A stretch of DNA of 64,000 nt from an uncultured Chloroflexia bacterium (GCA_963798955.1 CAWCVO010000002.1:157599-221598), one strand, 5' to 3'; shown: positions 13,626 to 62,698, counted from the first letter of the stretch. The notes: a model not told the origin generated them from the letters alone. Translations and numbers: made by a program.

Positions 13626-19393
<5,768 letters not shown>

Positions 19394-19397
<4 letters not shown>

Positions 19398-43547: not shown

Positions 43548-45482
43548 TCAGCCGGCGGAGCTCAGGTCGTACAGGCGACCCCCGACCTCGGTGACCAGGG
43601 TGCCGTGCTCGGTGACCCAGGCCGCCAGGTCAGTACTGCCGCCGCCCAGGCTGCGCAAGCCGCCCGGCCCAGCGAAGCCACCCGGGCCGCCAAAACCGCC
43701 ATCCGACAGCAGGAAGTAGCGCAGCTGGCCGCTGGCCACGTACTGCTTTAGCTGATCCACCGTCAGGGCGTTGTCGGATCCGTTGAAGCCGCCCACGGCC
43801 ATGACCGCATCACCCGTCGCGAGCTGGATCGGTGCCGCCTCGTTCGAGGAGGCCACGGCGACCAGCCAGGTCGCGTCGCCCTTGTTGGCTTCCAGGTAGG
43901 CGATCAGCTGATCGTCGGCCTGTCCACGGCCGCGCGCGAAAGGGGCACCCCCCGGGACGCCACCGGGACCGCCGCGCAAGCCGGCGTTCGTCGCCGGGCC
44001 AGGCTGCGGATCGCCAGCCGAATAGGCCGTGTTCATCGTCGCCGCGGCGTAGGCAGCGGGCCCGGCGAGCATCGCCACCAGGCCGAGCGTTGCCGCCGCT
44101 ACGGCCAGCCGGGGCGTGACGCCTGGCAGCAGCAGGCCCGCGTCGGCGATCGCCGCCGCGAGGAGCACGAGCGGGATCAGCCACGGCGCGAAGTCGGGCG
44201 TCCGGGCAAGCATGACCGCGGCGAGCAGCGCGGTGGCGGTCAGCGCGCCGGCCATGGTCAGCGTCGCGGCCATGCCCGCCGTGCCACCGGCGCGCCGCAG
44301 CTTCCACAACTCGCCGGCGCCGGCGCCGACGAGGGCACCGATTGCGGGCGCCAATACGACCGCGTAGTAGCTGTGGACGATGCCGCCCATGAACGAGAAG
44401 ACCAGGCCGGTAACGAGAAGCCAGCCACCCCACATCAGGAACGCGGCGCGGCGCAGGTCGGTACGGGGCGCTCGCGCGCGGACCACGAGGCCCACGCCGA
44501 GGGCGATCAGCGCCGCCGGTAGCAGCCAGGCCACCTGGCCACCGAACTCTGAATTGAACAGGCGCAGCAGCCCCGGATCGCCCGAGAAACCGGCGCCTGG
44601 TCCACCGCCACCGCCCGCTGCGCCCGGGCGACCATCGAGTCCGAAGAAGCCGAAGATCCGCTGCAGCCCGTCATAGCCGAACACCAGCTCGAGTGCCGAG
44701 TTGGTCGTGCTGCCACCGATGAACGGCCGCGCAGCGGCGGGAGTGAGCTCGACCGCGGCGATCCAAGCGAAGCTGCTGACGAGGACCGTGGCCAGCGCCG
44801 CCAGCAGGTGCGCCACGCGTCGTGCGACGCCTCCGGGCGCGGCGACGAAGTAGGTCAGCGCAAACGCGGGCAGGACGAGATATGCCTGCAGGAACTTGGT
44901 GTTGAAGGCGAGCCCGACCAGCAACGCCGCGCCCATGACCCAGCGCAGTCGGCCTTCCTCGAGCCCACGCATGAAGCAGTACGCCGAAGCCACCAGCAGC
45001 AGCGTGAGCAGCGCGTCGGGATTGTTGTAGCGAAAGATCAGCACCGCCGCCGGAGTCAATGCGGCGACGGTCGCGGCGATGGTCGCGGCGAGCGTCCCGA
45101 AGTAGCGCCGCACGGCAATGAACAGCAGCACGACCGTCGCGACACCGGCCACGGCCTGCGGCAACAGGACGCTCCACGACGAGAGGCCGAACACCCGCAC
45201 CGACAGGCCCATGAGCATGGTCGAGAGCGGCGGCTTGTCGACGGTGATGAAGTTCGCCGGGTCGAGCGATCCGAAGAACCACGCCGTCCAATCCAGGCTG
45301 GCCGCCTGGGCGGCCATCGAGTAGTAGGCGTTGGCGTAGCCGCTGACGGTCAGGTTGAACAGGTACACGAAGGCTGCCAGGGCGCCAACGGCGGGTAGCG
45401 CGATGGCCTTGATCAGCGAGCGCGCCGAAACCGCCGAGCTTTCGCGCACAGCGCGATTTGCCGCTGCGACGCGGTCGAGCAT
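43548..45482 (-). CDS. GT39/ArnT-like polytopic membrane glycosyltransferase with C-terminal soluble domain
   Basis: About 12 predicted TM helices with PMT/ArnT-like N-terminal loops (…DKPPLSTMLMGLSVRVFG…), Gly-rich linkers and a C-terminal domain. The ATG at 45482 was chosen to avoid overlap with the divergent gene. Confidence 0.6.
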   Translation of the reverse strand: MLDRVAAANRAVRESSAVSARSLIKAIALPAVGALAAFVYLFNLTVSGYANAYYSMAAQAASLDWTAWFFGSLDPANFITVDKPPLSTMLMGLSVRVFGLSSWSVLLPQAVAGVATVVLLFIAVRRYFGTLAATIAATVAALTPAAVLIFRYNNPDALLTLLLVASAYCFMRGLEEGRLRWVMGAALLVGLAFNTKFLQAYLVLPAFALTYFVAAPGGVARRVAHLLAALATVLVSSFAWIAAVELTPAAARPFIGGSTTNSALELVFGYDGLQRIFGFFGLDGRPGAAGGGGGPGAGFSGDPGLLRLFNSEFGGQVAWLLPAALIALGVGLVVRARAPRTDLRRAAFLMWGGWLLVTGLVFSFMGGIVHSYYAVVLAPAIGALVGAGAGELWKLRRAGGTAGMAATLTMAGALTATALLAAVMLARTPDFAPWLIPLVLLAAAIADAGLLLPGVTPRLAVAAATLGLVAMLAGPAAYAAATMNTAYSAGDPQPGPATNAGLRGGPGGVPGGAPFARGRGQADDQLIAYLEANKGDATWLVAVASSNEAAPIQLATGDAVMAVGGFNGSDNALTVDQLKQYVASGQLRYFLLSDGGFGGPGGFAGPGGLRSLGGGSTDLAAWVTEHGTLVTEVGGRLYDLSSAG

Positions 45483-45584
45483 GGCCGGCGTATCCACGCC
45501 CTCGACTCTCGCCGGCGCGCATGTGAGGGTCCCGCGCAGTAGCTGTGAGGTCGATGTGGATGTGGCGCTGCTAGCCTCGCGCAG

Positions 45585-46694
45585 ATGCTGCCTCAACCCG
45601 TCGCTCCTCGGCTGCCCGCCGGCATCGACAGCCCGGCGCTGGTCATCGACGTTGGCATCGTCCAACGCAACGCGCGGCGGATGGCTGGCGCGGTGAGTGG
45701 GCGCGGCGTGGCTCTCAGGCCACATGTCAAGACGCACAAGAGCGTGGCCATTGCCCAAATGCAGCTCGAGGCCGGCTCGACGGGTATCACCGTCGGCACG
45801 CTGGGCGAGGCGGAGGTGATGGCCGAAGGCGGTATCGCCGACATCTTCGTGGCGTACCCCGTCTGGGCGGATGCGGCCAAGGCCAGGCGGCTGCGGGCGC
45901 TGCACGAGCGGTCCGAGCTGGCCCTGAGCGTCGGGCTCGATTCGGTGGCCGGCGTCCAGTCACTGGCCGCTGCCGTGGCGGGCACCGCGCGACCGCTGGC
46001 CGTGTTGATCGAACTCGATTCCGGCCAGCACCGCACCGGCGTCGATCCGGCGCGCGCCGTCGAGATCGCTCGCGCCGCACAGACCGCCGGGCTGGCCGTG
46101 CGCGGCCTGTTCACGCATGGTGGCCACGCCTACGGCGGCCTCGATGCCGGAGCAGGCGCGGCGCACGATGAGGTGAGCGCCCTTGCTGCGGGACGTGAGG
46201 CGCTCCGCGCCGCGGGAATCGACGTGCAGCTACTCAGCGCCGGTTCGTCGCCGACCGCGTTGCGCTCGGCAAGCGCACCGGTAACCGAAGTGCGACCCGG
46301 CACTTACGTCGTCGGCGATCGCCAGCAGGTGGCGCTCGGCGCCAGTCCACCCGACGGCGTGGCGATCGCCGTCGCGGCGACCGTGGTGAGCGACGGCTCC
46401 GACCGGGTCGTGACCAACGCCGGCGCCAAGACGCTGACCAAGGACGTGCCGCCGTATCTTGCCGGCTACGGCTGCCTGCCCCGGTACCCCGATGGCGTAA
46501 TCGAACGCGTATCCGACTACCACGGCGTGATCGTCTTCCCCGCCGGCAGTGCCCGGCCGCAGCTGGGCGAAGTGGTCGCGGTGGTGCCCAACCATGCCTG
46601 TCCGGTGATCGACCTGTTCGACACGTTCTTGGCCACGCGCGACGGCGAGCTGGTCGGGGTTTGGCCGGTCGACGCGCGGGGCCGCTCCGGCTAG
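45585..46694 (+). CDS. alanine-racemase-fold PLP enzyme (D-threonine aldolase / D-serine deaminase DSD1-like)
   Basis: RPHVKTHKS PLP-lysine motif at the N-terminus and a C-terminal D-serine-dehydratase-like domain. Confidence 0.8.
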   Translation: MLPQPVAPRLPAGIDSPALVIDVGIVQRNARRMAGAVSGRGVALRPHVKTHKSVAIAQMQLEAGSTGITVGTLGEAEVMAEGGIADIFVAYPVWADAAKARRLRALHERSELALSVGLDSVAGVQSLAAAVAGTARPLAVLIELDSGQHRTGVDPARAVEIARAAQTAGLAVRGLFTHGGHAYGGLDAGAGAAHDEVSALAAGREALRAAGIDVQLLSAGSSPTALRSASAPVTEVRPGTYVVGDRQQVALGASPPDGVAIAVAATVVSDGSDRVVTNAGAKTLTKDVPPYLAGYGCLPRYPDGVIERVSDYHGVIVFPAGSARPQLGEVVAVVPNHACPVIDLFDTFLATRDGELVGVWPVDARGRSG

Positions 46695-50337: not shown

Positions 50338-51531
50338 TCAGTCGGGCTCCAAATCCCCGGCCGCAGGCGCGGCTGACGGTTCGCCGCTGCCGTGCGCGGC
50401 GGCCTCGCCCGACGCAAACCAGCCGCGCAGGCTGCCGCGCCACAGAGCTCGTTCATGGAACTTCCCGGTCGGGTTGATGCCGTCCAGACCGCCGGCCGTG
50501 ACCAGCGTCTCGAGCAACGGTGCCAGTTGCGACCCGTACACGTGCATGCACGGCTCGGGGCGCACGCCGGGCCACGAGTAGCAGGACACGACGGTCCGCC
50601 GTTCGCCGGTTGGAATTTCGGGCGGCAGGCTGTCCCAGGCGGGGTCGTCGGGTGCGAACTCCCATTGGTCGAGGTTACCCTGCGGGATGCCCTCGACGCC
50701 GCGAACCACCGGGGGCTCGGCGTCGAGCAGGTACGGGTCCACGGCCAGGTCGCAGATCACTGCGTGCTGCGGCAGCAGCGCGAGAAAGGCGTTCGGGATG
50801 ATGGGCTGTGTGGGATCGCGTCGAGCGGTGGCATCGACGAGCACGTCGGTCATCAGCAAGCGTGCCTTCAGATACTCCGGATCGCTCGTCAGGTTGCGGC
50901 CGGCGGTCACCACCTCGACCCCCGGCAACCCGGTCCGCGAATAGGCCTCGTTGCGGGCGTCGTCGCCGTACTTGGTCGCGAACTCGACCGCGTGTGTGCC
51001 TACGCGCCCGGCGCCCATGATCAATACCTTGACCGTCGAGTGGCGGGGGCCGCCGAGCTGTGGCCAGGTCCGCTCCAGCGCTGCGAAAGCAGCCGAGATT
51101 CCGTTCCAGGCAACGCTGCGCAGGTTCTCGACCAGTCGGCGCCCGTCATCGTTGCGGATGAGGTCGAGACTGATCGCGTCGATCCCCTTGTCGGCGAGCA
51201 TCCGGACCCGCGCCGGGCGGGTGGCGAAGTGGAGCATGGACACAAGCACGGCGCCCTTGCGCAGCCGATCGTACTTGCCGGCCGGCGCCCGGAGCACGAC
51301 CACGACGTCCTGCTTGTAGCAGTCGCCCTCGTCGGAGACCACGAGGTCCTGGGATAGGGCGCTGTAATCGGTGTCGTGGTAGCCCATGGCCGAGCCGATG
51401 CCGCTTTCCACGTGCACCTCGGCGCCACTCGCCAGGAGCAGGCCAACGAGTGGCGGCAGGAAGTCGCGCCGCTCGTTCGGCTCGCGATGCATCCGCGGGA
51501 ATCCAACGGTCAGCCGGCGGCCGCCCGCCAT
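50338..51531 (-). CDS. alanine dehydrogenase/PNT-domain NAD(P) oxidoreductase (saccharopine dehydrogenase / N5-(carboxyethyl)ornithine synthase-like)
   Basis: VLIMGAGRVGTHAVEFA Rossmann motif in an AlaDH/PNT-type architecture. GAGGAGG ribosome-binding site. The ORF-track N-terminal extension is rejected because it overlaps the tRNA. Confidence 0.75.
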   Translation of the reverse strand: MAGGRRLTVGFPRMHREPNERRDFLPPLVGLLLASGAEVHVESGIGSAMGYHDTDYSALSQDLVVSDEGDCYKQDVVVVLRAPAGKYDRLRKGAVLVSMLHFATRPARVRMLADKGIDAISLDLIRNDDGRRLVENLRSVAWNGISAAFAALERTWPQLGGPRHSTVKVLIMGAGRVGTHAVEFATKYGDDARNEAYSRTGLPGVEVVTAGRNLTSDPEYLKARLLMTDVLVDATARRDPTQPIIPNAFLALLPQHAVICDLAVDPYLLDAEPPVVRGVEGIPQGNLDQWEFAPDDPAWDSLPPEIPTGERRTVVSCYSWPGVRPEPCMHVYGSQLAPLLETLVTAGGLDGINPTGKFHERALWRGSLRGWFASGEAAAHGSGEPSAAPAAGDLEPD

Positions 51532-51618: not shown

Positions 51619-51694
51619 TGGAGCGGGAGACGGGATTCGAACCCGCGACATCTTGCTTGGGAAGCAAGCACTCTGCCAACTGAGTTACTCCCGC
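51619..51694 (-). tRNA. tRNA-Gly (anticodon CCC), CCA encoded
   Basis: The reverse complement GCGGGAGTAACTCAGTTGGCAGAGTGCTTGCTTCCCAAGCAAGATGTCGCGGGTTCGAATCCCGTCTCCCGCTCCA folds as a cloverleaf: 7-bp acceptor stem, anticodon stem CTTGC/GCAAG with loop TTCCCAA, and T-loop TTCGAAT. Confidence 0.9.
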
Positions 51695-51756
51695 TCAGCA
51701 GGCCGATTCTAGCGCCGGGGAGCAGTGCCACCTGCGGAACTAGACTGACCCGCGGG

Positions 51757-52917
51757 ATGCCTCGTACGAGCTCGCATACGGCCGATCGGTCGTCTCCGCC
51801 GGCAGCGCAGCCGACGGCAGGTGCAACTCTGCCCGCAGCGGCAGATGCCCTCGAGCACCGCCTCGTCCACATCTGGGAGAAAACTCTGGCGCGGCGTCCC
51901 ATTGGCGTCGACGACAACTTCTTTGCACTGAACGGGAATTCGCTCAAGGCGGTGCGACTGTGTGACCGAGTCTGGCGAGAGACGGGTCATCGGGTACCGC
52001 CCGCGATCCTCCTGGAGAGTCCCACAATCGCGACCTTCGCGGTGCGGCTGCGCCAACCCGACGCGACGCGTTCCGGGCTCATCGCCGTTCGAACCTCGGG
52101 AACGAAGCGCCCTTTGTTCGTCGCCCCGGGAGCCGGGCCGCGCGCCCTGTATATGCGCAACCTGGCCGAACACCTTGGCGCCGAACAGCCGCTCTACCTT
52201 CTGCAGGAGCCCCCCGGCGCTGCCCCGAGCGGAGCCGACCGGAGCGTCGAAGGCCTCGCGCAACGCTTCATCGTGGGCATGCGCCGCGTCCAGCCTCGCG
52301 GACCGTACGACGTGGTGGGCATCTCATTTGGCGGCCTGCTCGCCTACGAGGTCGCCCGGCAGCTCGTCGCCGGCGGCGAACAGGTCGGACTGCTCGGCCT
52401 GCTGGACACCCGCCACCCCGCATATTCCCGCCGCCGGCCAAGCGTTGCCCCAGGCGCCTTCGCTCGCCGCTTGGCCAACCAGGTCGTAATCGTGCGCCGC
52501 GTGGGGCGGCGGCGTGGTGGCCGGTATCTGCGCAATCGCGTTCGGATAGGTTGGAGTCGTTTCCTAGAGGGCTTGCGCGAAGGTTTCGCGTCCCGCTTAC
52601 CGGCGGACCTGGCGTCATTCATTCGCGACGGCACTCTGGAGTGGGAGCGCGCGTGGCAGGCTGCTGACGCTCAAGCGTCGGCACGCTACCGGCCGCTGCC
52701 CTACCCCGGCCGTCTCACATTTTTGTGGGCAGAGCACAGTCCCACGCCGGCCGATCGGAGTGCCTGGGCGGAGCTGGCCGCCGGGGGATTCGATGCGCGG
52801 CCAGTGCCGGGCGGCCACTTCACGCTGCTCGTCGAGCCCCTCGCCGGCATTACCGCCAGCATCCTCGCAAACGTCCTCGACGCAGCCCGGGCGGCGACCG
52901 GCTCGATGGCGAAGTGA
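51757..52917 (+). CDS. stand-alone peptidyl-carrier-protein plus thioesterase didomain protein (PCP-TE)
   Basis: PCP core DDNFFALNGNSLKAV (phosphopantetheine serine). The TE domain has GISFGG (GxSxG) and a C-terminal catalytic His region. It is paralogous to the C-terminus of the 57530-60319 synthetase. Confidence 0.75.
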   Translation: MPRTSSHTADRSSPPAAQPTAGATLPAAADALEHRLVHIWEKTLARRPIGVDDNFFALNGNSLKAVRLCDRVWRETGHRVPPAILLESPTIATFAVRLRQPDATRSGLIAVRTSGTKRPLFVAPGAGPRALYMRNLAEHLGAEQPLYLLQEPPGAAPSGADRSVEGLAQRFIVGMRRVQPRGPYDVVGISFGGLLAYEVARQLVAGGEQVGLLGLLDTRHPAYSRRRPSVAPGAFARRLANQVVIVRRVGRRRGGRYLRNRVRIGWSRFLEGLREGFASRLPADLASFIRDGTLEWERAWQAADAQASARYRPLPYPGRLTFLWAEHSPTPADRSAWAELAAGGFDARPVPGGHFTLLVEPLAGITASILANVLDAARAATGSMAK

Positions 52918-53008
52918 CGCCCCAGCCGGGGCTCTGGCGGGCCTGCGCGACGCTGCGACCCTACAGTCGCCCCTTCTGCGAAGTCGAATAGTGCGGATTG
53001 GCGCCTGT

Positions 53009-53629
53009 TCACCTGCGTATGCGAGGGTCGCCGGCCCAGTCGTCCCCCACCTCGACTTGCTCAATGAACACGGGCAAGCTCAACAACCGCGCCGCTACAT
53101 CGCGATTGAGATCCGCCAGCCCGTTGCCGTCGAGCTTGGCACGCGCCTCGAGCTCGGTCCACAGCTCGATCCACAGCCGCGGCCTGGCTGCAGCCGGCGC
53201 CTGCCGGATGGCCGCCACGTCTGGAGGTGGCAGAAAGCCTTCGGCGATCGCTTCGACCTCGGTCGCCGCGGACAACGGCTCGATGTCGATGCCGATCGCC
53301 CGGCGGCGACCGACCGCGACCAGGCCTCGGTCGTCGGCATGGGCGGCGCTGAAGGTCAGCCCGCTCGATCCGTGCAGCGTGGGCCGGCCGAGTGGTTCGT
53401 AGTCGAACACGAGCTCGCGTGGTGGGCAATGGGCATAGCGCGCGAGGATCGCGCGCAGGCAAGCGCGCGCCACCTGGTAGCGCCGGCGGTCCTCGGGCGA
53501 ACGCATCCGTCGGGCGCGGAACCGCTCGTCGGCCGAGAGGGTGGCGCGCAGAACTTCCGCTCCTTCGGGTGGCTGATCGAGCCGCAACCGCCAGACATCG
53601 ACGGCGTCGGCGGCCAGCTCGAAATTCAC
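53009..53629 (-). CDS. 4'-phosphopantetheinyl transferase (Sfp type)
   Basis: GIDIEP and WTELEARAK (W/FxxKEA) PPTase motifs. The GTG start overlaps the upstream TGA. Confidence 0.75.
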   Translation of the reverse strand: MNFELAADAVDVWRLRLDQPPEGAEVLRATLSADERFRARRMRSPEDRRRYQVARACLRAILARYAHCPPRELVFDYEPLGRPTLHGSSGLTFSAAHADDRGLVAVGRRRAIGIDIEPLSAATEVEAIAEGFLPPPDVAAIRQAPAAARPRLWIELWTELEARAKLDGNGLADLNRDVAARLLSLPVFIEQVEVGDDWAGDPRIRR

Positions 53630-54612
53630 ACGCGCACGAATTTCTGGATGCTCCGACTTCCACGATCGAGTCCGATCCACGATTCGGACGCGTCGGCGAC
53701 GTAGAAGCTGCCCGCCGAGTCGACGGCGATGCCGTGCGGCGCACAGAACATCCCCGCCCCCGGGTCGTTGTGAACCTTGCCGCGGATCATCGGGTTCCGT
53801 GACGGGGCGTCGGGGAGTGCCAGCTCTACCCCGCCGACCGCTGCATCGTCGACCTCGACGCCGTCACCCCAGCGAGCCAGCACGGTGCCCGACCTGTCGA
53901 GCACGGTCAGGCGATGGGCCAGTTCGGCGACGTAGAAATTGCCGTCGGGCCCCTTACGCACGCTCTGGGGCAGCCGGAGGTTGCTCCACTGACCCAGAAA
54001 TTCACCCGACGGCGTGAAGAATTGGACTCGGTTGTTGTACCGGTCGGCCGCGTAGACCGTGTCGTTGTCGTCGTGGTCGATGAACACGTTGTGCACCGTG
54101 TTGAACTCTCCCGGACCGTGGCCCGGGGAGCCCCAAGAAAGGAGCAACTCGCCCTGCTGGTTGAAGCAGTGGATCTGGGCGTTGCCGTACCCATCGCTCA
54201 CGTAGATGTTGCCGTTCGACGCCTCGGCCGCGTGAGTGGGCCGGTTGAAGGGCTTGCCACTGAAGGCCGGCGCGTTCTGGTGGGGCTTGCCCAGCACCAA
54301 CAGCAGCTTGCCGTCGCTGGTCCACTTGCGCACCGAGTGATCGCGGCTATCCGCGGTGTAAATAGAGCCGTCCGGGGCGACGCTCAGGCCGTGCGGGAAG
54401 GTGAAATAGAGCTCGCTCTTTTCACCCCAGGCGTCGAGGAAGTTGCCCTCCTTGTCGAAGATCATCACCGGGTGGTTGCCGCGACAGAACACGTACACGT
54501 TGTCGTCGCGGTCGATGCCCACATCGGCGCCCTCGACGAATGTCCAACCCTTGGGTCGTTTGAAGAAGCCGTCGACGACCTCGTACCGGTTGCGCCCGAT
54601 GGCAGCGTCCAT
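53626..54612 (-). CDS. NHL-repeat six-bladed beta-propeller protein (peptidyl-alpha-hydroxyglycine amidating-lyase-like)
   Basis: Repeated Y(V/T)ADxxNxR(V/I)Q(F/K) NHL signatures (YAADRYNNRVQFF, YVSDGYGNAQIHCF, YTADSRDHSVRKW). GGGAGGA ribosome-binding site before the ATG at 54612. Confidence 0.75.
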   Translation of the reverse strand: MDAAIGRNRYEVVDGFFKRPKGWTFVEGADVGIDRDDNVYVFCRGNHPVMIFDKEGNFLDAWGEKSELYFTFPHGLSVAPDGSIYTADSRDHSVRKWTSDGKLLLVLGKPHQNAPAFSGKPFNRPTHAAEASNGNIYVSDGYGNAQIHCFNQQGELLLSWGSPGHGPGEFNTVHNVFIDHDDNDTVYAADRYNNRVQFFTPSGEFLGQWSNLRLPQSVRKGPDGNFYVAELAHRLTVLDRSGTVLARWGDGVEVDDAAVGGVELALPDAPSRNPMIRGKVHNDPGAGMFCAPHGIAVDSAGSFYVADASESWIGLDRGSRSIQKFVRV

Positions 54613-54681
54613 GCCGTCCTCCCTAACGTCGGAAGTCGAATATTCGCGGCTTATGACTGGTGCAGATGACCCAAAAGTACC

Positions 54682-56463
54682 TTGTGTTGCGGGCGGGCAC
54701 CGAAAGCATTGACACCGCCGGGAGTCCTGCAAACATGGGTTTCCGAAGCCGACAGAGGGGACACGGCCATTACTACCGCAGCACGGGCAGTGGCACTCGA
54801 GCTACGCGCCCTGGGCGCCGAGTGCTTCTTCATGATGACGGGGCGCGACAACCTCCTGTGGATCGCCCTGCAGGAGACCGAGATCCGCCAGATCCTGGCG
54901 CGCAGCGAGGCCGCTGCCGTGTACATGGCGGACGCGTACGCGCGCCTGAACGGTCGGCCGACCTTCGTGTACGGCGCCTATGGGCCGGGCGCGGCGAACG
55001 TCGCTGGGGCACTGGCCGAACCGTACTGGTCGTCAAGTCCGGTGGTGGCGCTGACCTCGACGATGCGCCGCTCAGAGCGCTTCCGCAAGGAATACCAGGA
55101 AATCGACCAGGTGGGCATGTTTGCGCCTGTAACGAGGTGGGCCGTCGAGGCGTCGGCAGCAAACCAGGTGCCGCGGCTCATCCGCGAGGCCGCGCGACAC
55201 ACCATCATCGGCACACCCGGACCCGTATACCTGGGCATCCCCGGTGACGCGTTCGAGGAGGAGATCCCGAACTACCAGGAACCGGCGCCGCGCGATCCGC
55301 TCCGGATGCCCCTGGCGCGCCCCACGGTGACCAGCGCCGACGCGGACAAGGTCGTGGAGCTTCTCGCCGGCGCCAGCCGGCCCGTCATCCTGGCCGGCAA
55401 CGGCGTCCACCAGTCACGCGCCTACGAGTCGCTGCGCACGGTCGCCGAGCGGCTGGGCGTTCCCGTGGCAACGAGCAGCGCGGGCAAGGGCAGCATCTCC
55501 GAGGCGCACCAACTGGCCCTCGGGACGGTTGGGCGCTACTCGCGCAACTATGCCAACGCTGCGGTGCGCGACGCGGACGTGGTCCTCGCCATCGGCACCG
55601 CGTTGGGCGGACTCGTCACCGATTCGTACAAGTTGATCAGGCCCGAGGCCAAGCTGATCCACGTGACGATGGATCCGGAGGTCATCGGCCTGAACTTCCC
55701 AACCAAACTCGGCCTGGTGGCCGATGCGCGCGCCTTCCTCGACGCTCTCGTCGAAGCCTGCGACCGACTCAATGTCGATCGATCCGGCAGCTCGACTGCG
55801 TACCTCGACGGGCTGGCGCATGCGCGTCGAGCGTGGCGCGATCGGCGCGCCGGCCTGGCTGCCAGCGATGGCGCCGATGGCCGGCCGATGCGACCCGAGG
55901 CAATCATGGCGGTGATCGAGGAGCAGATGGCCGACGATGCCATCCTGGTCGCAGACACCGGTTACTCGGCGGCGTGGGCCGGCGCCCTGGCCGAGACCAG
56001 GACGGCGGGTCGCAACTTCCTGCGCTCCGACGGCTCACTGGGCTTTGCCTTCCCCGGCGCGCTCGGGGCCCAGATCGCGGAACCGGACCGGCAGGTGATC
56101 TGCGTCACCGGCGACGGTGGCTTCGGCTACAACATCGGCGAGCTGGAGACGGCCCTGCGCTTCGACCTGCCCGTCGTGGTCGTCATCCTCAACAACCAGA
56201 CGCTGGCCTTCGAGGCCCATGTGCAGACGTTGCTGTACGGCCACCTGGTGCCCGAGGTGAACGACTTCCGCGACGTCGATTACGGCCAGATCGCATGTGC
56301 CTTCGGCGTGCGCGGCTACCGCGTGCGGAGTGCCAGGGAGTTCAGCGAGGCGTTCGCCATCGCGCTCGAACGACGCGGTCCGACGATCATCGACGCGGTC
56401 ATCGACCGCGAGGCGCTGGGGCCGGTGACACGCTACGACCGTGTTCGTGTGCGTGAGCTATGA
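54682..56463 (+). CDS. thiamine-diphosphate-dependent enzyme (acetolactate synthase / benzoylformate decarboxylase family)
   Basis: N-terminal Pyr domain and C-terminal PP domain with the ThDP-binding motif GDGGFGYNIGELETA…NN. The start is uncertain. Confidence 0.8.
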   Translation: MCCGRAPKALTPPGVLQTWVSEADRGDTAITTAARAVALELRALGAECFFMMTGRDNLLWIALQETEIRQILARSEAAAVYMADAYARLNGRPTFVYGAYGPGAANVAGALAEPYWSSSPVVALTSTMRRSERFRKEYQEIDQVGMFAPVTRWAVEASAANQVPRLIREAARHTIIGTPGPVYLGIPGDAFEEEIPNYQEPAPRDPLRMPLARPTVTSADADKVVELLAGASRPVILAGNGVHQSRAYESLRTVAERLGVPVATSSAGKGSISEAHQLALGTVGRYSRNYANAAVRDADVVLAIGTALGGLVTDSYKLIRPEAKLIHVTMDPEVIGLNFPTKLGLVADARAFLDALVEACDRLNVDRSGSSTAYLDGLAHARRAWRDRRAGLAASDGADGRPMRPEAIMAVIEEQMADDAILVADTGYSAAWAGALAETRTAGRNFLRSDGSLGFAFPGALGAQIAEPDRQVICVTGDGGFGYNIGELETALRFDLPVVVVILNNQTLAFEAHVQTLLYGHLVPEVNDFRDVDYGQIACAFGVRGYRVRSAREFSEAFAIALERRGPTIIDAVIDREALGPVTRYDRVRVREL

Positions 56464-57458
56464 CGACCCTCGCCCCAGATATCCATGTAGCCCCAGCACC
56501 TGACATCGAGACGGTCAGGGCGCTGGCCGCCCGCTGTACCAACTGGGGAAGGTGGGGCGCCGACGACGAACTCGGGACGCTCAATCACATTCGACCCGAG
56601 GATGTCGCGGCGGCTGCCGGCCTCGTGAAGTCGGGGCGCACCTTCTCGCTGTCGATCCCGCTCGACGAGAACGGGCCGCAGACCGGCGGCTTCGGTCGCT
56701 TCAATCCCATCCACCTGATGATCCGCGACGGCAACGCAGCCGCCACCGGCACTGTCGTGCGCGACTTTTACGGTGGCCGCGACCGATGGATCCGCGGCAC
56801 GGACGACCTGCTGATCCTGCCCCTCCAGTCAGGCACCCAGTGGGACTCGCTCGCGCACATCGTCTTCGAGAATCACATCTACAACGGCTACGACGCGACC
56901 ACCGTCGGCGGCAAGGGGGCGCTGCGCAACGACATCGCCAAGGCCGGCGACAAGGTCGTCGGCCGCGGCGTCCTGCTGGACGTGCCGCGCAGCCTTGGTC
57001 GTGAATGGCTGGACCCGGGCGAGCAGATCCACGCGGCGGACCTCGAGGCATGCGCGCGCGCTCAGAACGTCTCGGTCGGGCGTGGCGACATCGTGCTCGT
57101 GCGCACCGGGCAGATGGCCCAATGCCGCAGCGCCGGAAGCTGGGGCAGCTATGCGGGGGGAGCCGCGCCTGGGCTCGCGCTTGATACCGCGCCGTGGATC
57201 TTCGAACGAGAGCTCGCCGCAGTCGCGACCGATACCTGGGGCCTCGAGGTGCTGCCCAACGAGACTGCAGACGTGTTCCAGCCCCTGCACATCATCCTGA
57301 TCGTCCACATGGGCCTGCTCCTGGGTGAGATATTCGACCTGGAGGCGCTCGCCGCCGACTGTGCGGCGGACAGTCGTTACGAATTCCTGATCAGCGCGGC
57401 ACCGCTGCCAATTACCGGGGGGGTTGGCTCGCCGGTGAACCCGCTGGCGATCAAGTAG
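56460..57458 (+). CDS. cyclase-family protein (kynurenine formamidase-like metal hydrolase fold)
   Basis: …HIVFENHIYNGYD… GRGDIVLVRTG… typical of Pfam Cyclase proteins. Confidence 0.8.
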   Translation: MTTLAPDIHVAPAPDIETVRALAARCTNWGRWGADDELGTLNHIRPEDVAAAAGLVKSGRTFSLSIPLDENGPQTGGFGRFNPIHLMIRDGNAAATGTVVRDFYGGRDRWIRGTDDLLILPLQSGTQWDSLAHIVFENHIYNGYDATTVGGKGALRNDIAKAGDKVVGRGVLLDVPRSLGREWLDPGEQIHAADLEACARAQNVSVGRGDIVLVRTGQMAQCRSAGSWGSYAGGAAPGLALDTAPWIFERELAAVATDTWGLEVLPNETADVFQPLHIILIVHMGLLLGEIFDLEALAADCAADSRYEFLISAAPLPITGGVGSPVNPLAIK

Positions 57459-57529
57459 TCGAGGGTGCGCGACGCGAGGGTGCTGGCGTCGCGGTCGTAG
57501 AACCAGGAATTGGCGATGGTGATCGAACG

Positions 57530-60319
57530 GTGACGGCAGAGCTGACCGAGACCCGCGAGCTGGCGGAGTTCGAGCGCTTCACGCCGGATCAGGTCGAGCA
57601 GACCATCCCTGAACGTTTCGGCCGCCAGGTTGCGAAGTTCGCCGGGCGACCGGCGGTCATCGATGGCGGCAAGACATGGACGTACGGTGAACTCGCGGCG
57701 TCCGCGGCAAAGGTGGCCGGGGCGATCGCAAGCACGCGCGCCGGAGAGCAGGCCCGGATCGGTCTGCTCGGACTGCCCGGCGCCCAGTTGGTGGCCGCCA
57801 CCCTGGGCATTCTGCAGGCGGGCGGCACCGTCGTGCCGCTGGATCCATTGTTCCCCGCCCAGCGCCTGGCATCGATCGCAATGGACGCTGAGCTCGCCCT
57901 GGTCGTGGCCGGTGATGGCCTGACCGACATGGCCCGTGGGGCGCTCGGCCAGGATCTTGAGATCCTCGACCTGGCCGGCATCCTGTCCGCCCCCGGCGCA
58001 ATGAGTGCGTCGGATGGGAGCTCACTGAAATGTGCGACGGCTCGTGATCCGGCGTACCTGCTGTACACCTCGGGTTCTACGGGCGAGCCGAAGGGCACTC
58101 TGCACAGCCATCGCCAGGTGCTGCACCGCATCCGTGTCTACACCAACGCCGTGAGCCTCGATCCCCACGACCGCGTGCTGCTGATCGCCAAGCCCACGTT
58201 CGTGGCCTGGGTCACGGTCCTCTTCGGGGCGCTGCTGAACGGCGCCGCGGCATGCATCGTCGATCTTGCGGAGGTCGGCTTTGTGGGCCTGCGCGACCTC
58301 ATCGGCGAGGAGAACGTGACCGTCACCCACTCCACACCGACCGTCTACCGTGAGTTGGTGGCGACGCTCGCGGCCGACGAACGGCTGAGCGGCGTGCGGG
58401 CTGTGGCCCTCGGTGGCGAGGAAGTACGGGTGGCCGACTTCGATGCATTCCGGCAGCACTTCGCGACGGATGCCATTTTCGTCAACGTCATGGCCTCGAC
58501 CGAATCCTCGATCGGCCTGGTGTTCGTGGCCAACGCGACGAGCACCATCGCGGGCGCTTCAATTCCAGCCGGCTTTCCGGCCGAGGCAACCGAAGTCCTG
58601 TTGCTCGATGCCAGCGGAGAGCCGGCTGAATCCGTGGGCGAAATCGCCTTCCGCAGCCGCTTCATTCCCGCCGGCTACTGGAAGCGTCCCGAGCTGACCG
58701 CCGCCACGTTCCGTCACGACGCGGCCGATCCGGACCTGGTGACCTATCGCACGGGCGACCTGGGACGGCGTCGTGACGATGGTGCGTTCGAGTTCGCCGG
58801 GCGGCGCGACCGCCAGGTCAAGGTGCGCGGCATTCGCGTCGAGATTGCCGAGGTCGAGCAGGCCCTCGCGGCCCTGCCGCAGGTGCGCCAGGTCGCGGTT
58901 GAGGCGCACGTCATGAACGGTGAGACCGAACTCGTCGCGTACCTCGAACCGTCGGGGGCTGAATGCCCAGCGCAGCACGAGCTGTCACAGGCGCTGCGCA
59001 ACCGGCTGCCCGAATACATGCTTCCGAGCGCTGCCGTGTGGCTCGATCGGCTGCCACGGACCAGCTCCAACAAGATCGACCGCCGTGCGCTGCCCGACCC
59101 GCCCGTGCCCGGCGACCCAGCGCCGGCAGCGCAGGCGCGCGATGACGTTGAGCGCCAGCTCCTCGAAATATGGGAACGCGTGCTGGCGCGCCCGGTCGGT
59201 CTCGACGACAACTTCTTCGACATCGGCGGCAACTCGCTCAAGGCGGTCCGCCTGTGCGATCGGATATGGCGCGAGATGGGCCACCGCCTGGCGCCCTCTG
59301 TTCTGCTGGGCAGTGCCAACATCGGCCTGCTGGCCGAGCAACTGCGGCAAGGCGACGGGGTCGGGCCAAACGACCTCGTGCCCGTGCAACCGGCCGGGAC
59401 ACAGCGTCCGCTGTTCATCGTGCCCGGCGCGGGGTCGCGCATCCTGTACGTGCGCAACCTGGCTGTCCACCTGGGTCTCGACCAGCCGATCTATGCCCTG
59501 CACCAGCCCCCGAGCGGCCGGGACGGCCATGTCGAGCGACGCGTCGAGGACCTCGCCGCACATTACGTCACGGCGTTGCGCAAGGTTCAGCCGCACGGGC
59601 CGTACGATCTGGTGGGCATCTCATTTGGTGGCGTGGTGGCCTTTGAGGTCGCCCAGCAGCTGCTTGCCGCGGGGCAACAGGTCGGACTGCTGGCGCTGAT
59701 CGACAGCCGCCACCCCGCGCAACCGCAGAGGCACCGGAGCCTCCGGCCGCGGGCGCTGGCGCGTCGCGTCGGCAACCAGGCCGGCATCGTCCGCCGGTTA
59801 GGCCCGCGACGCGGCGCTGCATACCTGAGTGGTCGTTTGCGAATTCAGTGGACCAACTCGCTCGAAGCCGTACGGGAGAGGCTTGGGTCGCGCCTGCCCG
59901 GTTGGCTGGGCGGCGTGGTCCGTGACCCGTCACTGCAGTCCGAGCGCGACTGGCTCGAGGCCGATGGACGGGCGTTTGACCGCTATCAAACCGCGTCCTA
60001 CCCGGGCCGGATCACCTTCTTGTGGGCCGAACACAGCCCAACGCCGCCCGAGCATCGCTACTGGGCCGAGTTGGCGGCCGGCGGCTTCGATCCGCGAGGG
60101 GTGCCGGGTGGCCACTTCACCGCATTGGTCGAGCCGCTGGTCGGTATCACCGCCGGGGTGCTGAGAGATGCACTCGCCGAGGCGAGATCGACCGGTGCGC
60201 ACGGCAATGCCCTGGATCGGCCCGTCAATCAGCGAACGACGACGAGCGGGGCGCCGTACGCAATGGCGGCGAGCGCGCAGATCGGCAGCGGCCCGGACAC
60301 GCGCTCACCTGTACTGTAG
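57530..60319 (+). CDS. NRPS-like tridomain synthetase: adenylation, PCP, thioesterase (A-T-TE, no condensation domain)
   Basis: A3 LLYTSGSTGEPKG, A7 YRTGDLG, A8 GRRDRQVKVRGIRVEIAEVE, A10 SSNKIDRRAL, PCP FFDIGGNSLKAV, TE GISFGG. Confidence 0.85.
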   Translation: MTAELTETRELAEFERFTPDQVEQTIPERFGRQVAKFAGRPAVIDGGKTWTYGELAASAAKVAGAIASTRAGEQARIGLLGLPGAQLVAATLGILQAGGTVVPLDPLFPAQRLASIAMDAELALVVAGDGLTDMARGALGQDLEILDLAGILSAPGAMSASDGSSLKCATARDPAYLLYTSGSTGEPKGTLHSHRQVLHRIRVYTNAVSLDPHDRVLLIAKPTFVAWVTVLFGALLNGAAACIVDLAEVGFVGLRDLIGEENVTVTHSTPTVYRELVATLAADERLSGVRAVALGGEEVRVADFDAFRQHFATDAIFVNVMASTESSIGLVFVANATSTIAGASIPAGFPAEATEVLLLDASGEPAESVGEIAFRSRFIPAGYWKRPELTAATFRHDAADPDLVTYRTGDLGRRRDDGAFEFAGRRDRQVKVRGIRVEIAEVEQALAALPQVRQVAVEAHVMNGETELVAYLEPSGAECPAQHELSQALRNRLPEYMLPSAAVWLDRLPRTSSNKIDRRALPDPPVPGDPAPAAQARDDVERQLLEIWERVLARPVGLDDNFFDIGGNSLKAVRLCDRIWREMGHRLAPSVLLGSANIGLLAEQLRQGDGVGPNDLVPVQPAGTQRPLFIVPGAGSRILYVRNLAVHLGLDQPIYALHQPPSGRDGHVERRVEDLAAHYVTALRKVQPHGPYDLVGISFGGVVAFEVAQQLLAAGQQVGLLALIDSRHPAQPQRHRSLRPRALARRVGNQAGIVRRLGPRRGAAYLSGRLRIQWTNSLEAVRERLGSRLPGWLGGVVRDPSLQSERDWLEADGRAFDRYQTASYPGRITFLWAEHSPTPPEHRYWAELAAGGFDPRGVPGGHFTALVEPLVGITAGVLRDALAEARSTGAHGNALDRPVNQRTTTSGAPYAMAASAQIGSGPDTRSPVL

Positions 60320-60358: not shown

Positions 60359-62698
60359 TCAGCAGGTCTGCACTGTGAACGCGGTCACGGCCGACGACGT
60401 GCTGACGTTGCCGTGCACGTCCGTGGCCCTGACACTCAGGCTCACGACGTAGGACGCGGTCCCCGGGATCGGCAGCCAGGCGATGGTATCCGTGGCAGTG
60501 CTCAGTGTGACCCGGTAGACGCCCGCGGACAGGGCCATCGCAACGCTGACGAGCGGTGTGCTGTTTTGGCGTTGATAGCGCAGCACGACGTTCTTCACGC
60601 CGGATGGGTCGACGACCCGCACCGAGACGACCACCGACTGGCCGAGTCCGGTGGTCGGGTCGCAGGTGGGCGCCGCGGTTACCCCGATCGTGTCCGGGTT
60701 CCATGACAGGCGGGTCACCCTGGGGCCGCTGGTATCGGGCGTCGGCGTCGGTGTCGGTGTGGGCGTGGGGGTGGGTCGCGCAGTCGGCCTGGGCGACGGT
60801 CGCGGCGTTGGTCTGGCCGTCGGCGGCGCCGTCGGAGTGGGCGTGGCGGTCGGAGGTACGCCAGGCGTGGCGGTGGGGAGCGTGGTCGGTGTTCCGCAAA
60901 CAGCGCCGATCGCACAGGGCGTTACGCCGGGCGAGCCGACCGGCTCACTCGCCCGCGGCGACTCACAGGACACCCCGGCGGGACATGGGGAGACCGCGAG
61001 ACCCTGGCTCTGGTCCGGACAACCCGTGACGACAGCGATGCCCGATGGGCAGTTCGGGGTCGGCGCCGGAGAAAGCATCGCGGACGCAGACGGATAAGGG
61101 CACGACGTCTGCTGGCCGGCCGCGTTAGCCGTGACACAAGGCTCGAATGCAGACGGCCCTTGACTGGCCGACGGCGTAGGCGTTCTCGGCAAGCCGCCCC
61201 ACACGACCACGGTGGTGAGCGCGATGGCCAGCCCAACGAGGAGGATCGGCCGGCGCAACCGCGGCCGGGACAGGGTCACCCGCGATGCCGGAGGTACCAC
61301 CCGCGCGATAGGGCGAGACAGTGGCGGCGGGAGCGCCCGCCGCTTGGGCTTCGAGCGGCGTGGTGGTTCGCCCTTGCCGGTCTCCATTCGCGCCGCGGCA
61401 TCTGCTGGTGCCTCCACCTCATCGAACAAGCCGGCCGCCGGCTCATCGAGAGTGGCGACGGCGCCGGTCGCTCGCCTGCCTGCGAACGCATTGAGCGGAG
61501 CGTCAAGGGCACCACTCGTCCATAGCCGCTCGAGCCGCCGCGCCGCCGAGCGAGGAACGCGTAGGAAGAACGAGCGGACGGGATGGGCGACGCGCAGGAC
61601 GGCCAGGTCCCACGTCACGTATTGAGGAGTCAGGCGGAGTGCTCCCCGCTCGCGTGTGACAAGCAGTGGCCGGGCGGCATTGCGCGCGCTCGTGGCCAAT
61701 CGCTCGCGAGGCACGAACGGATCCTCAGGTGCTTGCCGCTCGAGGGGTGTCGGCACGTCGCCCGCCACCACCGCGTCGACCAGCGTTAGCTCGGCGGGCA
61801 GGCCAAACCGTGCGGCGATCGGCCGAAGATGCGCCCACGTTGCCCGGAGGCGGTCGCCGCCCGTCTCCCAGGATCCGTCCGCGAGCTGCAAGCGCGCTGT
61901 CCGTCCGAGCGTGTACAGGTCGTCCCCGAAGGCGTCCCGAGCCACGAAGAGACCGGGCCGTTGCCAGGTGAAGCGCAGTCCGTGGCCGTCGAGCGGGACC
62001 GGCCCAGGGCTGGCCACGGACACCGGACCTGTGCCGTCGCCATCTCTGCCGTCTGCAGCCTTGCATGCATGCCACGCCGCGATGACACCGGCAAGCACGA
62101 ACAGGCTCGCGACCACCAGATCGGCCTGTGTCTCGAGGAACTCGGTGCCGATCTCGAGCCGCCGGTATCTTGGTCGCACGAGCAGGCCCGGGGAACTGCG
62201 CCGCTCGGCGACCAGCATGACCGCCGGCGCATACGTGACCGCGAACCGGCGCGCCAGGGCCCAGCCGTCGAGACCATCCGCGAATGCGTTGACATGAGTC
62301 GAATACCCGCGCAGCTCGGCACCGGTGGGCAGCCGGCGGCGCAGAGCCGACCGTTCAGCGAGGGCGTCCCGTGCGAGCCGGGTGGCGATGCCGGCCTGAA
62401 GCCTGCGCGGCGGCGTAGCGACTTCGGCGTGCGGACTGTCGACCGTCCAGACGGCCCCCGAGGCGACGATCCGCGCGTTCTCGTCGAAGGCGAAGCGTCG
62501 CAGTGCCCGGGTGGGAACGACGCGATCGATCAGGTCCTGGAAGTCGACTGTACCGCCGCGCAGCCAGACCGCGTACTCCTGCTCCAGGCCGGCGATCGCG
62601 GCCGGCCGCCTGGGTTGGCCCGCAGCGGACGCGAAGAAGCCACGGAAGACGGCATCGGGATCGTGCCGGAGGCGCCGGGCTGCCGGCGCAATAGCCAT
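60359..62698 (-). CDS. large membrane-anchored hypothetical protein: cytoplasmic N-terminal domain (~470 aa), one TM helix, Cys-rich segment, Pro/Thr linker, C-terminal Ig-like beta domain
   Basis: TM helix PILLVGLAIALTTVVVWGG, (TP)n linker and a beta-rich C-terminus. The N-domain has a GLEQEYAVW motif faintly resembling carboxylate-amine ligases, which is not confirmed. Confidence 0.6.
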   Translation of the reverse strand: MAIAPAARRLRHDPDAVFRGFFASAAGQPRRPAAIAGLEQEYAVWLRGGTVDFQDLIDRVVPTRALRRFAFDENARIVASGAVWTVDSPHAEVATPPRRLQAGIATRLARDALAERSALRRRLPTGAELRGYSTHVNAFADGLDGWALARRFAVTYAPAVMLVAERRSSPGLLVRPRYRRLEIGTEFLETQADLVVASLFVLAGVIAAWHACKAADGRDGDGTGPVSVASPGPVPLDGHGLRFTWQRPGLFVARDAFGDDLYTLGRTARLQLADGSWETGGDRLRATWAHLRPIAARFGLPAELTLVDAVVAGDVPTPLERQAPEDPFVPRERLATSARNAARPLLVTRERGALRLTPQYVTWDLAVLRVAHPVRSFFLRVPRSAARRLERLWTSGALDAPLNAFAGRRATGAVATLDEPAAGLFDEVEAPADAAARMETGKGEPPRRSKPKRRALPPPLSRPIARVVPPASRVTLSRPRLRRPILLVGLAIALTTVVVWGGLPRTPTPSASQGPSAFEPCVTANAAGQQTSCPYPSASAMLSPAPTPNCPSGIAVVTGCPDQSQGLAVSPCPAGVSCESPRASEPVGSPGVTPCAIGAVCGTPTTLPTATPGVPPTATPTPTAPPTARPTPRPSPRPTARPTPTPTPTPTPTPDTSGPRVTRLSWNPDTIGVTAAPTCDPTTGLGQSVVVSVRVVDPSGVKNVVLRYQRQNSTPLVSVAMALSAGVYRVTLSTATDTIAWLPIPGTASYVVSLSVRATDVHGNVSTSSAVTAFTVQTC
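60715..60900. repeat. GT-rich microsatellite-like low-complexity DNA, (GGYGTS)n, encoding the Pro/Thr linker on the minus strand
   Basis: ggcgtcggcgtcggtgtcggtgtgggcgtgggggtgggt… read directly from the sequence. Confidence 0.5.

Follow-up and report, generated by a model that had tools for sequence, protein, structure and literature searches.

We analysed a stretch of 64,000 nucleotides (the window) from an uncultured Chloroflexia bacterium (GCA_963798955.1 CAWCVO010000002.1:157599-221598), in which six genes next to a tRNA-Gly(CCC) gene had been presented, in a preliminary description, as one compact biosynthetic locus related to nonribosomal peptide synthetases (NRPSs). All six genes and the tRNA were found as described (Pfam, ARAGORN, Rfam). 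Comparison with related loci indicates that they are very probably a composite, made up of a conserved module, an NRPS part and a relic, and not a single six-gene cluster. The module encodes an NHL-repeat propeller, a thiamine diphosphate (ThDP)-dependent enzyme and a cyclase-family protein; the NRPS part consists of an adenylation-thiolation-thioesterase (A-T-TE) synthetase and a 4'-phosphopantetheinyl transferase (PPTase); and the relic is a peptidyl carrier protein-thioesterase (PCP-TE). Related species nearly always carry an ATP-grasp gene beside the module, and this gene is absent from the loci that have the NRPS part. We propose, as a serious possibility that falls somewhat short of being probable, that the A-T-TE synthetase and the PPTase functionally replace the ATP-grasp ligase. 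The genes of the module and of the NRPS part are as follows.

53009-53629, minus strand: Sfp/HetI-type PPTase (Pfam ACPS and AASDHPPT_N), with a possible in-frame upstream GTG at 53680
53626-54612 (longest open reading frame (ORF) to 54732), minus strand: NHL-repeat six-bladed beta-propeller (Pfam NHL, E 2.9e-26)
54682-56463, plus strand: ThDP-dependent enzyme of the acetolactate-synthase/carboligase superfamily (Pfam TPP_enzyme_N, M and C)
56460-57458, plus strand: PF04199 cyclase-family protein (Pfam Cyclase, 71.7 bits, cutoff 23.1)
57530-60319, plus strand: A-T-TE synthetase of 929 aa without a Condensation domain (Pfam AMP-binding, AMP-binding_C, PP-binding and Thioesterase), with A at 57623-59074, T at 59156-59341 and TE at 59405-60127

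A class-wide module and its ATP-grasp partner

Genomes were scanned for the cyclase, one per species, which yielded 80 loci (41 from Limnocylindria and 39 from Acidimicrobiia or other Actinomycetota), and two query sets were run against these, all proteins of the window and the genes of the NRPS-less locus L086. ThDP and cyclase genes were present in all 40 NRPS-less Limnocylindria loci (56-73% and 71-84% identical to the window proteins, respectively), and an NHL gene, usually divergent from the ThDP gene, was found in 35 of them (59-82% identical). Directly after the cyclase gene, in either orientation, 39 of the 40 loci carry a gene for a COG3919-type ATP-grasp protein of ~403 aa (L086:10992-12203 and 38 other loci within L006-L046; 45-100% identical to the L086 query) that is absent from the window. 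Genes outside this tetrad of NHL, ThDP, cyclase and ATP-grasp were not conserved among the 40 loci. Of the 41 Limnocylindria loci, only L013 gave matches to the A domain, the TE domain and the PPTase (L013 and the L004 discussed below are one locus), and nothing in the gene contexts of the NRPS-less cyclase loci suggests NRPS chemistry. The NHL, ThDP and cyclase genes, joined in almost all relatives by the ATP-grasp gene, form a class-wide conserved module of the Limnocylindria. The earlier view of a coherent six-gene cluster has to be given up, since 40 related species loci carry the module without NRPS genes, and in a set of 80 distant A-T-TE loci such neighbours were never found.

Wherever homologues of the cyclase or the ATP-grasp protein carry an organism name, it is 'Candidatus Limnocylindria/Limnocylindrales', with many from Microflora Danica metagenome-assembled genomes, and the host of the window is an uncultured member of the Chloroflexota, class Limnocylindria. 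Bacteria of this class are abundant in soil and freshwater and are uncultured. The ATP-grasp family is itself restricted to the lineage (322 database proteins at E<=1e-5), and its members bear the JGI names 'ATP-grasp superfamily carboligase' or 'D-aspartate ligase'. An AlphaFold model of the protein (pLDDT, the predicted local distance difference test, 86) matched PurK, carbamoyl-phosphate synthetase, GAR synthetase and L-amino-acid ligases with a Foldseek probability of 1.0; as judged from this predicted model, the displaced protein is a true ATP-grasp fold.

No gene of the locus is more conserved than that of the cyclase, with >100 protein clusters at 76-84% identity; the protein matches the PDB entry 5ibz, an 'uncharacterized protein', over its full length (E 4.8e-61). 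The start of the gene overlaps the stop of the ThDP gene in the sequence ATGA (56460-56463), and the two are translationally coupled. The ThDP enzyme, whose gene is divergent from NHL, carries the GDG...NN ThDP motif and scores 397 bits against NCBIfam PRK06112, under the cutoff of 673. Its nearest solved structure is BbmA, 8x3x (235 bits), on which literature searches turned up no paper, followed by acetolactate synthase (ALS), glyoxylate carboligase, benzaldehyde lyase, Oxc and HACL. The NHL propeller appears to be cytoplasmic, with no signal peptide or PEP-CTERM; its top NCBIfam match is ScyF (117.5 bits, under the cutoff of 350), and its PDB matches include the peptidylglycine amidating lyase domain 3fvz.

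The Actinomycetota loci contain cyclases 60-67% identical to that of the window, and 24 of the 39 have a ThDP homologue, mostly at 35-40% identity and ~4 kb off. In one of them, from Nocardioides sp. LHG3406-4 (L054:3356-17147), the cyclase homologue (63% identical) lies inside an IclR-regulated gene set with an NMT1-type ABC transporter, a ThDP enzyme, an MR/MLE enzyme, a DUF35/thiolase pair, an AMP-forming CoA ligase and an isocitrate/isopropylmalate-dehydrogenase-like enzyme; by its gene content this set looks like a catabolic operon.

NRPS genes and the missing ATP-grasp gene

An A-T-TE gene, or one that encodes an additional condensation (C) domain, stands with a PPTase gene beside the module in three loci only: the window, with its counterpart L001, a 1.88-Mb contig of an ENA soil metagenome assembly (99.57% identical to the window; A-T-TE 99.9% identical), L003 and L004. 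The preliminary description had put forward conservation of the six-gene set as a check, and of that set the NHL, ThDP and cyclase genes alone are class-wide. No ATP-grasp homologue was found, even at E 10, in the 64-kb window or in the 23-kb L003 and L004 loci. The ATP-grasp gene is hence present in 39 of the 40 NRPS-less loci and in none of the three NRPS-bearing ones (Fisher p 3e-4 treating the loci as independent).

In the window and in L003, the A-T-TE gene starts 72-75 nt after the cyclase gene, in the slot of the ATP-grasp gene, and the PPTase gene follows NHL. The NRPS genes are packed into the transcription units of the module: a gap of 72 nt separates the cyclase and A-T-TE genes of the window, and the stop of NHL overlaps the GTG start of the PPTase gene in the sequence GTGA (53626-53629). 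This overlap and that between the ThDP and cyclase genes were both read directly in the sequence, in agreement with the preliminary description. The order in L004 is cyclase, ThDP, then divergently NHL, C-A-T-TE and PPTase, and here too the ATP-grasp gene is gone. In a tree of the three module proteins, the window and L003 grouped together in 200 of 200 bootstraps and all three NRPS-bearing loci in 22 of 200, and on this evidence the NRPS-bearing loci likely represent two lineages. The module of the NRPS-bearing genomes is under purifying selection, with ratios of non-synonymous to synonymous substitution rates (dN/dS) of 0.10-0.20.

Origin of the synthetase

Homologues of the A-T-TE synthetase were sought among 5.8 billion proteins, and the best 120 matches were considered. 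After the L001 protein the closest was P0002 at locus L003 (66% identity), and the next were C-A-T-TE proteins of 1196-1408 aa (51-62% identity, the nearest 58-62%). In a neighbour-joining tree of the A domains, which had no AtrA or RalA references in it, the window protein and P0002 were nested inside the C-A-T-TE clade, and this clade was separate from a widespread family of ~900-aa A-T-TE proteins with Ser at position 235. By these relationships the A-T-TE synthetase is a condensation-domain-less offshoot of the C-A-T-TE termination modules of Limnocylindria. It is placed with ordinary NRPS modules, and its neighbours are not conserved around it, which largely undoes the case first made for a dedicated cluster.

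The ~900-aa family (P0050, P0052, P0053, P0061 and others; loci L087-L166) combines Ser235 with the specificity code SGS..EGL.K and occurs in many phyla. DAMHVGGVSK is the code of another large family, of C-A-T-TE type.

Of the seven closer NRPS relatives examined, six lie away from the module, P0005, P0006, P0008, P0009 and P0011 among glycosyltransferase genes; the seventh, in L004, lies beside the NHL, ThDP and cyclase triad. The relatives' synthetase genes are followed by a PPTase gene, with several GT4 glycosyltransferases around them. Such a PPTase gene adjoins the NRPS gene in five of the closer relatives away from the module, and homologous PPTases follow the related C-A-T-TE genes in L004, L005, L168, L169 and L171. 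A gene for a ~445-aa polytopic membrane protein is found 1-7 kb from the relatives' synthetase, directly after the PPTase gene in two of five loci, and an A-T didomain protein and a P450 precede the synthetase in two relatives. Past the NRPS in L004 come genes for glycosyltransferases and epimerases; the NRPS set of L169 abuts a COX15/UbiA gene, and in L086 COX15/UbiA lies just past the module and the ATP-grasp gene.

These contexts have to be set against functional replacement, for they fit the main rival explanation, which we regard as quite possible, while inclining to doubt it: plain juxtaposition. The A-T-TE and PPTase genes would be the trimmed edge of a Limnocylindria surface-glycan-type NRPS locus, brought beside the module by a recombination that also deleted the ATP-grasp gene, and the synthetase would be independent of the ThDP, cyclase and NHL proteins, acylating an unrelated acceptor or loading and releasing the acid alone. 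The glycosyltransferase surroundings and adjoining PPTase genes of the relatives agree with this, as do the glycosyltransferase and epimerase genes of L004, and the position of COX15/UbiA in L169 and L086 gives the module edge the look of a variable junction. Moreover, the flanks beyond the module are not conserved in the 40 loci, one inversion links the orders of L004 and the window, and the Val or Arg at position 235 described below predates the adjacency. It is harder to see in these terms why the ATP-grasp gene, kept by 39 of the 40 other loci, is missing from all three that bear NRPS genes, why the module is still under purifying selection without it, and why the PPTase gene is translationally coupled to NHL. 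In addition, the A-T-TE of the window and L003 lineage is under purifying selection, with no glycosyltransferases nearby and no other NRPS or polyketide synthase (PKS) genes in 57 kb upstream.

Substrate specificity and selection on the synthetase

The synthetase was correctly described as an A-T-TE protein of 929 aa without a condensation domain: Pfam found no match to Condensation (PF00668) in it, and only 72 nt lie between the cyclase and A-T-TE genes. The motifs YTSGSTGEPKG, YRTGD, GRRDRQVKVRG, PRTSSNKIDR, GGNSL, GISFGG and GGHF are present, and the translation and the clade alignment indicate that A3, A7, A8, A10, the phosphopantetheine Ser and the TE Ser and His are kept; motif A5 is atypical (NVMASTE). 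Specificity codes were read by pairwise alignment to a GrsA-PheA fragment, which returns the expected DAWTIAAICK. The codes obtained were as follows.

Window A-T-TE: VATHAGVI(G)K, with Asp235 changed to Val
P0002: VATHAGLISK
P0003: VTKHVGIIGK
P0007 (L004): RAIHVGTMGK
Deeper relatives: DAMHVGG..K

Asp235 binds the alpha-amino group of amino-acid substrates. Because Val replaces it in the window enzyme, the substrate is probably not an alpha-amino acid. Val at the first code position has been given as a hallmark of alpha-keto-acid activation (PMC10316625). The subclade with Val or Arg in place of Asp235 holds both C-containing and C-less members; the change came before the C domain was lost and has no tie to the ThDP surroundings.

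The specificity code also bears on the chemistry first suggested for the locus, a tRNA-island cluster of six genes in which an A-T-TE like RalA, AtrA or TdiA dimerises aromatic alpha-keto acids, provided or modified by the ThDP enzyme, to a product of the furanone or terphenylquinone type. Val at code position 1 preserves the alpha-keto-acid element of that suggestion and the A-T-TE layout without a C domain matches it, and both the ThDP enzyme and an AlaDH-like dehydrogenase past the tRNA could handle 2-oxo acids. The proposed family is not supported: the enzyme nests among C-A-T-TE modules whose deeper members have Asp235, apart from the stand-alone A-T-TE families, and the remainder of its code, ATHAGVIGK, resembles the DAMHVGG..K of the Asp235 relatives and is not known from an aromatic pocket. 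Nor do the neighbours behave as partners of such a synthetase. They accompany the module in NRPS-less loci (ThDP and cyclase in 40 of 40, NHL in 35 of 40), ThDP, cyclase and NHL are found beside none of the 80 distant A-T-TE loci, the PCP-TE gene is a relic, and aminotransferase, integrase, att repeat and G+C shift are all lacking. We consider this reading of the locus most improbable.

The A-T-TE ORF is intact in two lineages, those of the window and L003, whose proteins are only ~65-66% identical. With a dN/dS of 0.21 against L003, and six synonymous changes to one non-synonymous against L001, the A-T-TE gene is under purifying selection.

The PCP-TE relic and the PPTase

The PCP-TE and PPTase genes are convergent.

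51757-52917, plus strand: PCP-TE (Pfam PP-binding and Thioesterase)
52872-53057: convergent PCP-TE/PPTase 3' junction, hypervariable against L001, with many substitutions and indels (blastn)

Over 382 aa, PCP-TE and the C-terminus of the A-T-TE synthetase (A-T-TE residues 508-887) share 56% identity. The alignment opens inside motif A10, where MPRTSSHTADR stands against LPRTSSNKIDR and the catalytic Lys is changed to Thr, and because it starts there PCP-TE is the remnant of a 5'-truncated synthetase and not a designed stand-alone T-TE protein. Its identity to every clade member is 46-56%; being similarly distant from all of them, it is an old paralogue and no recent copy of the neighbouring A-T-TE gene. 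By these alignments PCP-TE is a 5'-truncated relic of an older second (C-)A-T-TE synthetase, and the purposeful duplication seen in it earlier falls away. Consistent with its status as a relic, it is absent from L003 and L004, its G+C content at third codon positions is 0.76, compared with 0.81-0.86 in neighbouring genes (a weaker codon-position signal), and it violates 13 of 82 clade-invariant positions, compared with 0-5 for most members and 12 for the most divergent, P0008. The phosphopantetheine Ser, the Ser of the TE GxSxG motif and the His of GGH are retained, and since these catalytic residues are kept PCP-TE may have some residual function.

In L001 the PCP-TE frame runs through into a 650-aa ORF. 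The patch at 52872-53057 could reflect strain variation or an assembly error, and since this junction differs between near-identical assemblies the last ~15 codons of PCP-TE are uncertain. The PPTase has HetI as its best NCBIfam match (E 2.6e-38, below cutoff), and two of the three differences between the window and L001 in its gene are non-synonymous.

It might be supposed that the A-T-TE, PPTase and PCP-TE genes are all non-functional leftovers of a dismantled NRPS system heading for deletion. Loss of the C domain and of partner genes, the atypical motif A5, the hypervariable junction, the non-synonymous changes in the PPTase gene and the truncated, divergent PCP-TE with its weak codon-position signal would all be expected of decay. 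The intact A-T-TE reading frame in two diverged lineages, the dN/dS and excess of synonymous changes given above, and the full set of A3, A7, A8, A10, phosphopantetheine, TE Ser and His residues would not, and we regard decay of the whole NRPS part as very unlikely.

The tRNA-Gly gene and the island question

The preliminary description had pointed to the tRNA gene as a classic site of island integration.

51619-51694, minus strand: tRNA-Gly(CCC) (ARAGORN; Rfam RF00005, 69.6 bits)
50338-51531, minus strand: AlaDH/PNT-family dehydrogenase just past the tRNA, far below the alanine dehydrogenase cutoff

The 3' end of the tRNA points away from the locus, so that the six genes lie on its 5' side. 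Integrases normally act at the 3' side of a tRNA gene. Pfam detected no integrase or transposase in the genes called between 47.5 kb and 64 kb, no direct repeats derived from the tRNA (att-type) were present in 40000-64000, and the G+C content along the window gave no composition shift at the locus (0.64-0.70, compared with 0.60-0.72 elsewhere in the window and ~0.68 in the 64 kb). With the genes on the wrong side of the tRNA and all these marks wanting, the island interpretation finds no footing. The tRNA was the sole RNA in the Rfam scan, which returned no riboswitches. Scans for promoters and terminators gave nothing over shuffled expectation, and a hairpin in the gap between the cyclase and A-T-TE genes was not significant (z -0.63).

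In the sister locus L003 the tRNA-Gly(CCC) gene also lies just past the PPTase gene. There, a full tRNA-Gly(CCC) and a partial copy that matches it in the 3' ~55 nt only (L003:1577-1654 and L003:5157-5232) bracket a 3.5-kb segment with OsmC, heliorhodopsin, PD40-repeat and 381-aa genes, on the 3' side of the tRNA and away from the NRPS genes. The paired copies have the att-like pattern expected of integration at the 3' end of the tRNA. Since they flank this other segment, the tRNA is a recombination site in the lineage, for other cargo. Three NRPS-less loci (L006:1871-1946, L007:6886-6961 and L009:5914-5989) have a gene for another isoacceptor, tRNA-Gly(TCC), downstream of NHL and on the same strand, abutting NHL in L007. 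The association of a tRNA-Gly with the module may therefore be long-standing synteny and no sign of an island.

The AlaDH/PNT-like dehydrogenase is also found near the locus in L003 and is absent from L004 and all other related loci. It could supply a 2-oxo acid.

A proposed exchange of carboxylate-activating enzymes

The scheme that we propose is the following. The ThDP enzyme would form a carbon-carbon bond from a 2-oxo acid, and the cyclase-family and NHL proteins would process the product. In most species, the ATP-grasp enzyme would activate a carboxylate as an acyl phosphate and then ligate or cyclise it. In the window lineage, the substrate of the A domain would be a non-amino (2-oxo or 2-hydroxy) carboxylate, which would pass as its adenylate to the T domain primed by the PPTase, and the TE domain would transfer or cyclise the bound acyl group. 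The A-T-TE synthetase would in this way be a non-orthologous replacement of the ATP-grasp step, as MysE is for MysD. The gene content, the presence and absence of genes, the descent of the synthetase, selection and the ATP-grasp fold are what the analysis demonstrates; this chemistry, the order of its steps and the functional link between the two parts of the locus are our inference. Replacement is favoured because both enzymes are ATP-dependent carboxylate activators that pass an acyl group to a nucleophile, and because the MysD/MysE pair provides a precedent. More broadly, the tetrad may constitute an undescribed pathway for a metabolite of almost all Limnocylindria, its ATP-grasp step taken over by A-T-TE and PPTase in at least two lineages; we hold this wider reading tentatively and would not call it probable.

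Several observations weigh against replacement. The three NRPS-bearing loci amount to one or two evolutionary events, and with one or two real events the association between NRPS and ATP-grasp genes is only suggestive. The NRPS genes could have come in, and the ATP-grasp gene gone, by a single recombination with no link in function between the two, and one inversion can derive the L004 order from an ancestral order of module, C-A-T-TE and PPTase. One locus, L023, has no ATP-grasp gene and no NRPS gene nearby; lacking both, it indicates that the ATP-grasp gene can be absent or relocated, and the absence recorded for the NRPS-bearing cases covers only the window and the L003 and L004 loci. Val or Arg at position 235 is common to relatives in glycosyltransferase loci and so is not specific to adjacency with the module. 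Among 80 distant metagenome A-T-TE loci (<=36% identity), none had ThDP, cyclase or NHL neighbours, although 19 had a PPTase gene. A possible Rosetta-stone link, the fusion protein P0065, was considered and rejected, since its ThDP part shares only 27% identity with the ThDP enzyme of the window and it is a single protein among the 120 best matches.

P0065 itself (JGI 3300078620, a 5.4-kb contig) is a 1470-aa fusion of A-T-TE with a C-terminal ThDP enzyme, and its A-T-TE part is 38% identical to that of the window. A literature search for A-T-TE together with thiamine returned no papers.

The presence and absence of genes across the class points to a conserved four-gene pathway in a dominant uncultured soil lineage. 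If the exchange is real, two interchangeable enzymatic handles would be available for finding the metabolite by heterologous expression. The locus also carries a caution for genome mining, as rule-based tools would box a conserved module and a grafted NRPS fragment as one cluster. For enzymology, it indicates that a termination module can lose its C domain and Asp235 yet remain under selection.

Other genes in the window

Further genes of the window are listed below.

11779-13485: 568-aa protein with two GAF domains, which precedes the hybrid histidine kinase
13455-19397, plus strand: hybrid histidine kinase of 1980 aa with eight GAF domains, HisKA/HATPase and two receiver domains
37935-39515 and 40090-42129, both minus strand: NiFe-hydrogenase large-subunit-like gene and 679-aa protein (4Fe-4S dicluster, NAD-binding, DHODB Fe-S)
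43548-45905: PMT_2/YkcB-type mannosyltransferase
60359-62698, minus strand: 779-aa ORF without a Pfam match, with a cytoplasmic N-terminal part, one transmembrane segment, a long Pro/Thr-rich linker and a C-terminal domain

The 779-aa ORF was considered as a conserved partner of the locus and set aside, as it has no homologue in L003 or L004; the 645-aa protein that flanks the module in L004, with no recorded Pfam match, is unrelated (inositol-monophosphatase family).

Comparison with known systems

The cyclase shares the Pfam family PF04199 with kynurenine formamidase and isatin hydrolase. The canonical metal motif of this family is HxGTHxDxPxH. Read by eye, the corresponding region is QSGTQWDSLAH in the window protein and GSTQWDALSH in 5ibz, and sequence searches with the window cyclase detected no solved kynurenine formamidase. 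Given the altered motif and the lack of such a match, a formamidase function of the window cyclase appears doubtful.

The combination of a ThDP carboligase-family gene with a neighbouring NHL propeller, for which ScyF is the best NCBIfam match, recalls ScyA and ScyD/E/F of scytonemin synthesis. The differences are that the ScyF score is under the cutoff, that ScyB, ScyC and tryptophan/tyrosine supply genes are missing, and that the propeller lacks a signal peptide and PEP-CTERM. At the level of gene content, we treat the resemblance as a lead only.

Like AtrA, TdiA, RalA and the polyporic acid synthetases, the window enzyme is an A-T-TE protein that lacks a C domain and has Val in the first position of its specificity code. 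It differs from them in its pocket residues and in having C-containing modules as nearest relatives, so that as far as tested it does not share their descent, and no aminotransferase is clustered with it in the window, where the AlaDH/PNT-like dehydrogenase lies past the tRNA.

The likeness to the C-A-T-TE synthetases of Limnocylindria (P0003-P0009, P0012 and P0013) is closer, extending to 51-66% identity over A-T-TE, the same long-lid TE domain, a dedicated PPTase and a pocket pattern of x-A/T/S-x-H-V/A-G. The window protein and P0002 nevertheless lack the C domain, deeper members keep Asp235, and the window and P0002 loci no longer stand beside the membrane protein, the glycosyltransferases or the A-T and P450 partners.

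The closest parallel to the proposed exchange is the synthesis of mycosporine-like amino acids. The alternation of MysE and MysD reportedly goes back to Balskus and Walsh in 2010. An ATP-dependent ligation step is carried out either by the ATP-grasp enzyme MysD or by the NRPS-like A-T-TE enzyme MysE, some homologues of which have an extra C domain (PMC10666671). Both systems comprise a small conserved pathway with either an ATP-grasp or an A-T-TE enzyme, and the C domain of some MysE homologues has its counterpart in the L004 homologue. They differ in several respects. The substrate of MysE is an amino acid (Ser, Gly or Pro), and Asp235 is expected in that enzyme, whereas the window A-T-TE has Val235; the companions of MysE and MysD are a sugar-phosphate cyclase, an O-methyltransferase and MysC, whereas those in the window are the ThDP, cyclase and NHL proteins, and no mycosporine core genes (MysA, MysB, MysC) were found among the Pfam annotations of neighbouring genes. 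MysE has been reported only from cyanobacteria and the window host belongs to the Chloroflexota, and in the present case the replacement is read from the presence and absence of genes. If it is borne out, the locus would represent a second natural exchange between an ATP-grasp enzyme and a carrier-protein-dependent synthetase, after MysD and MysE.

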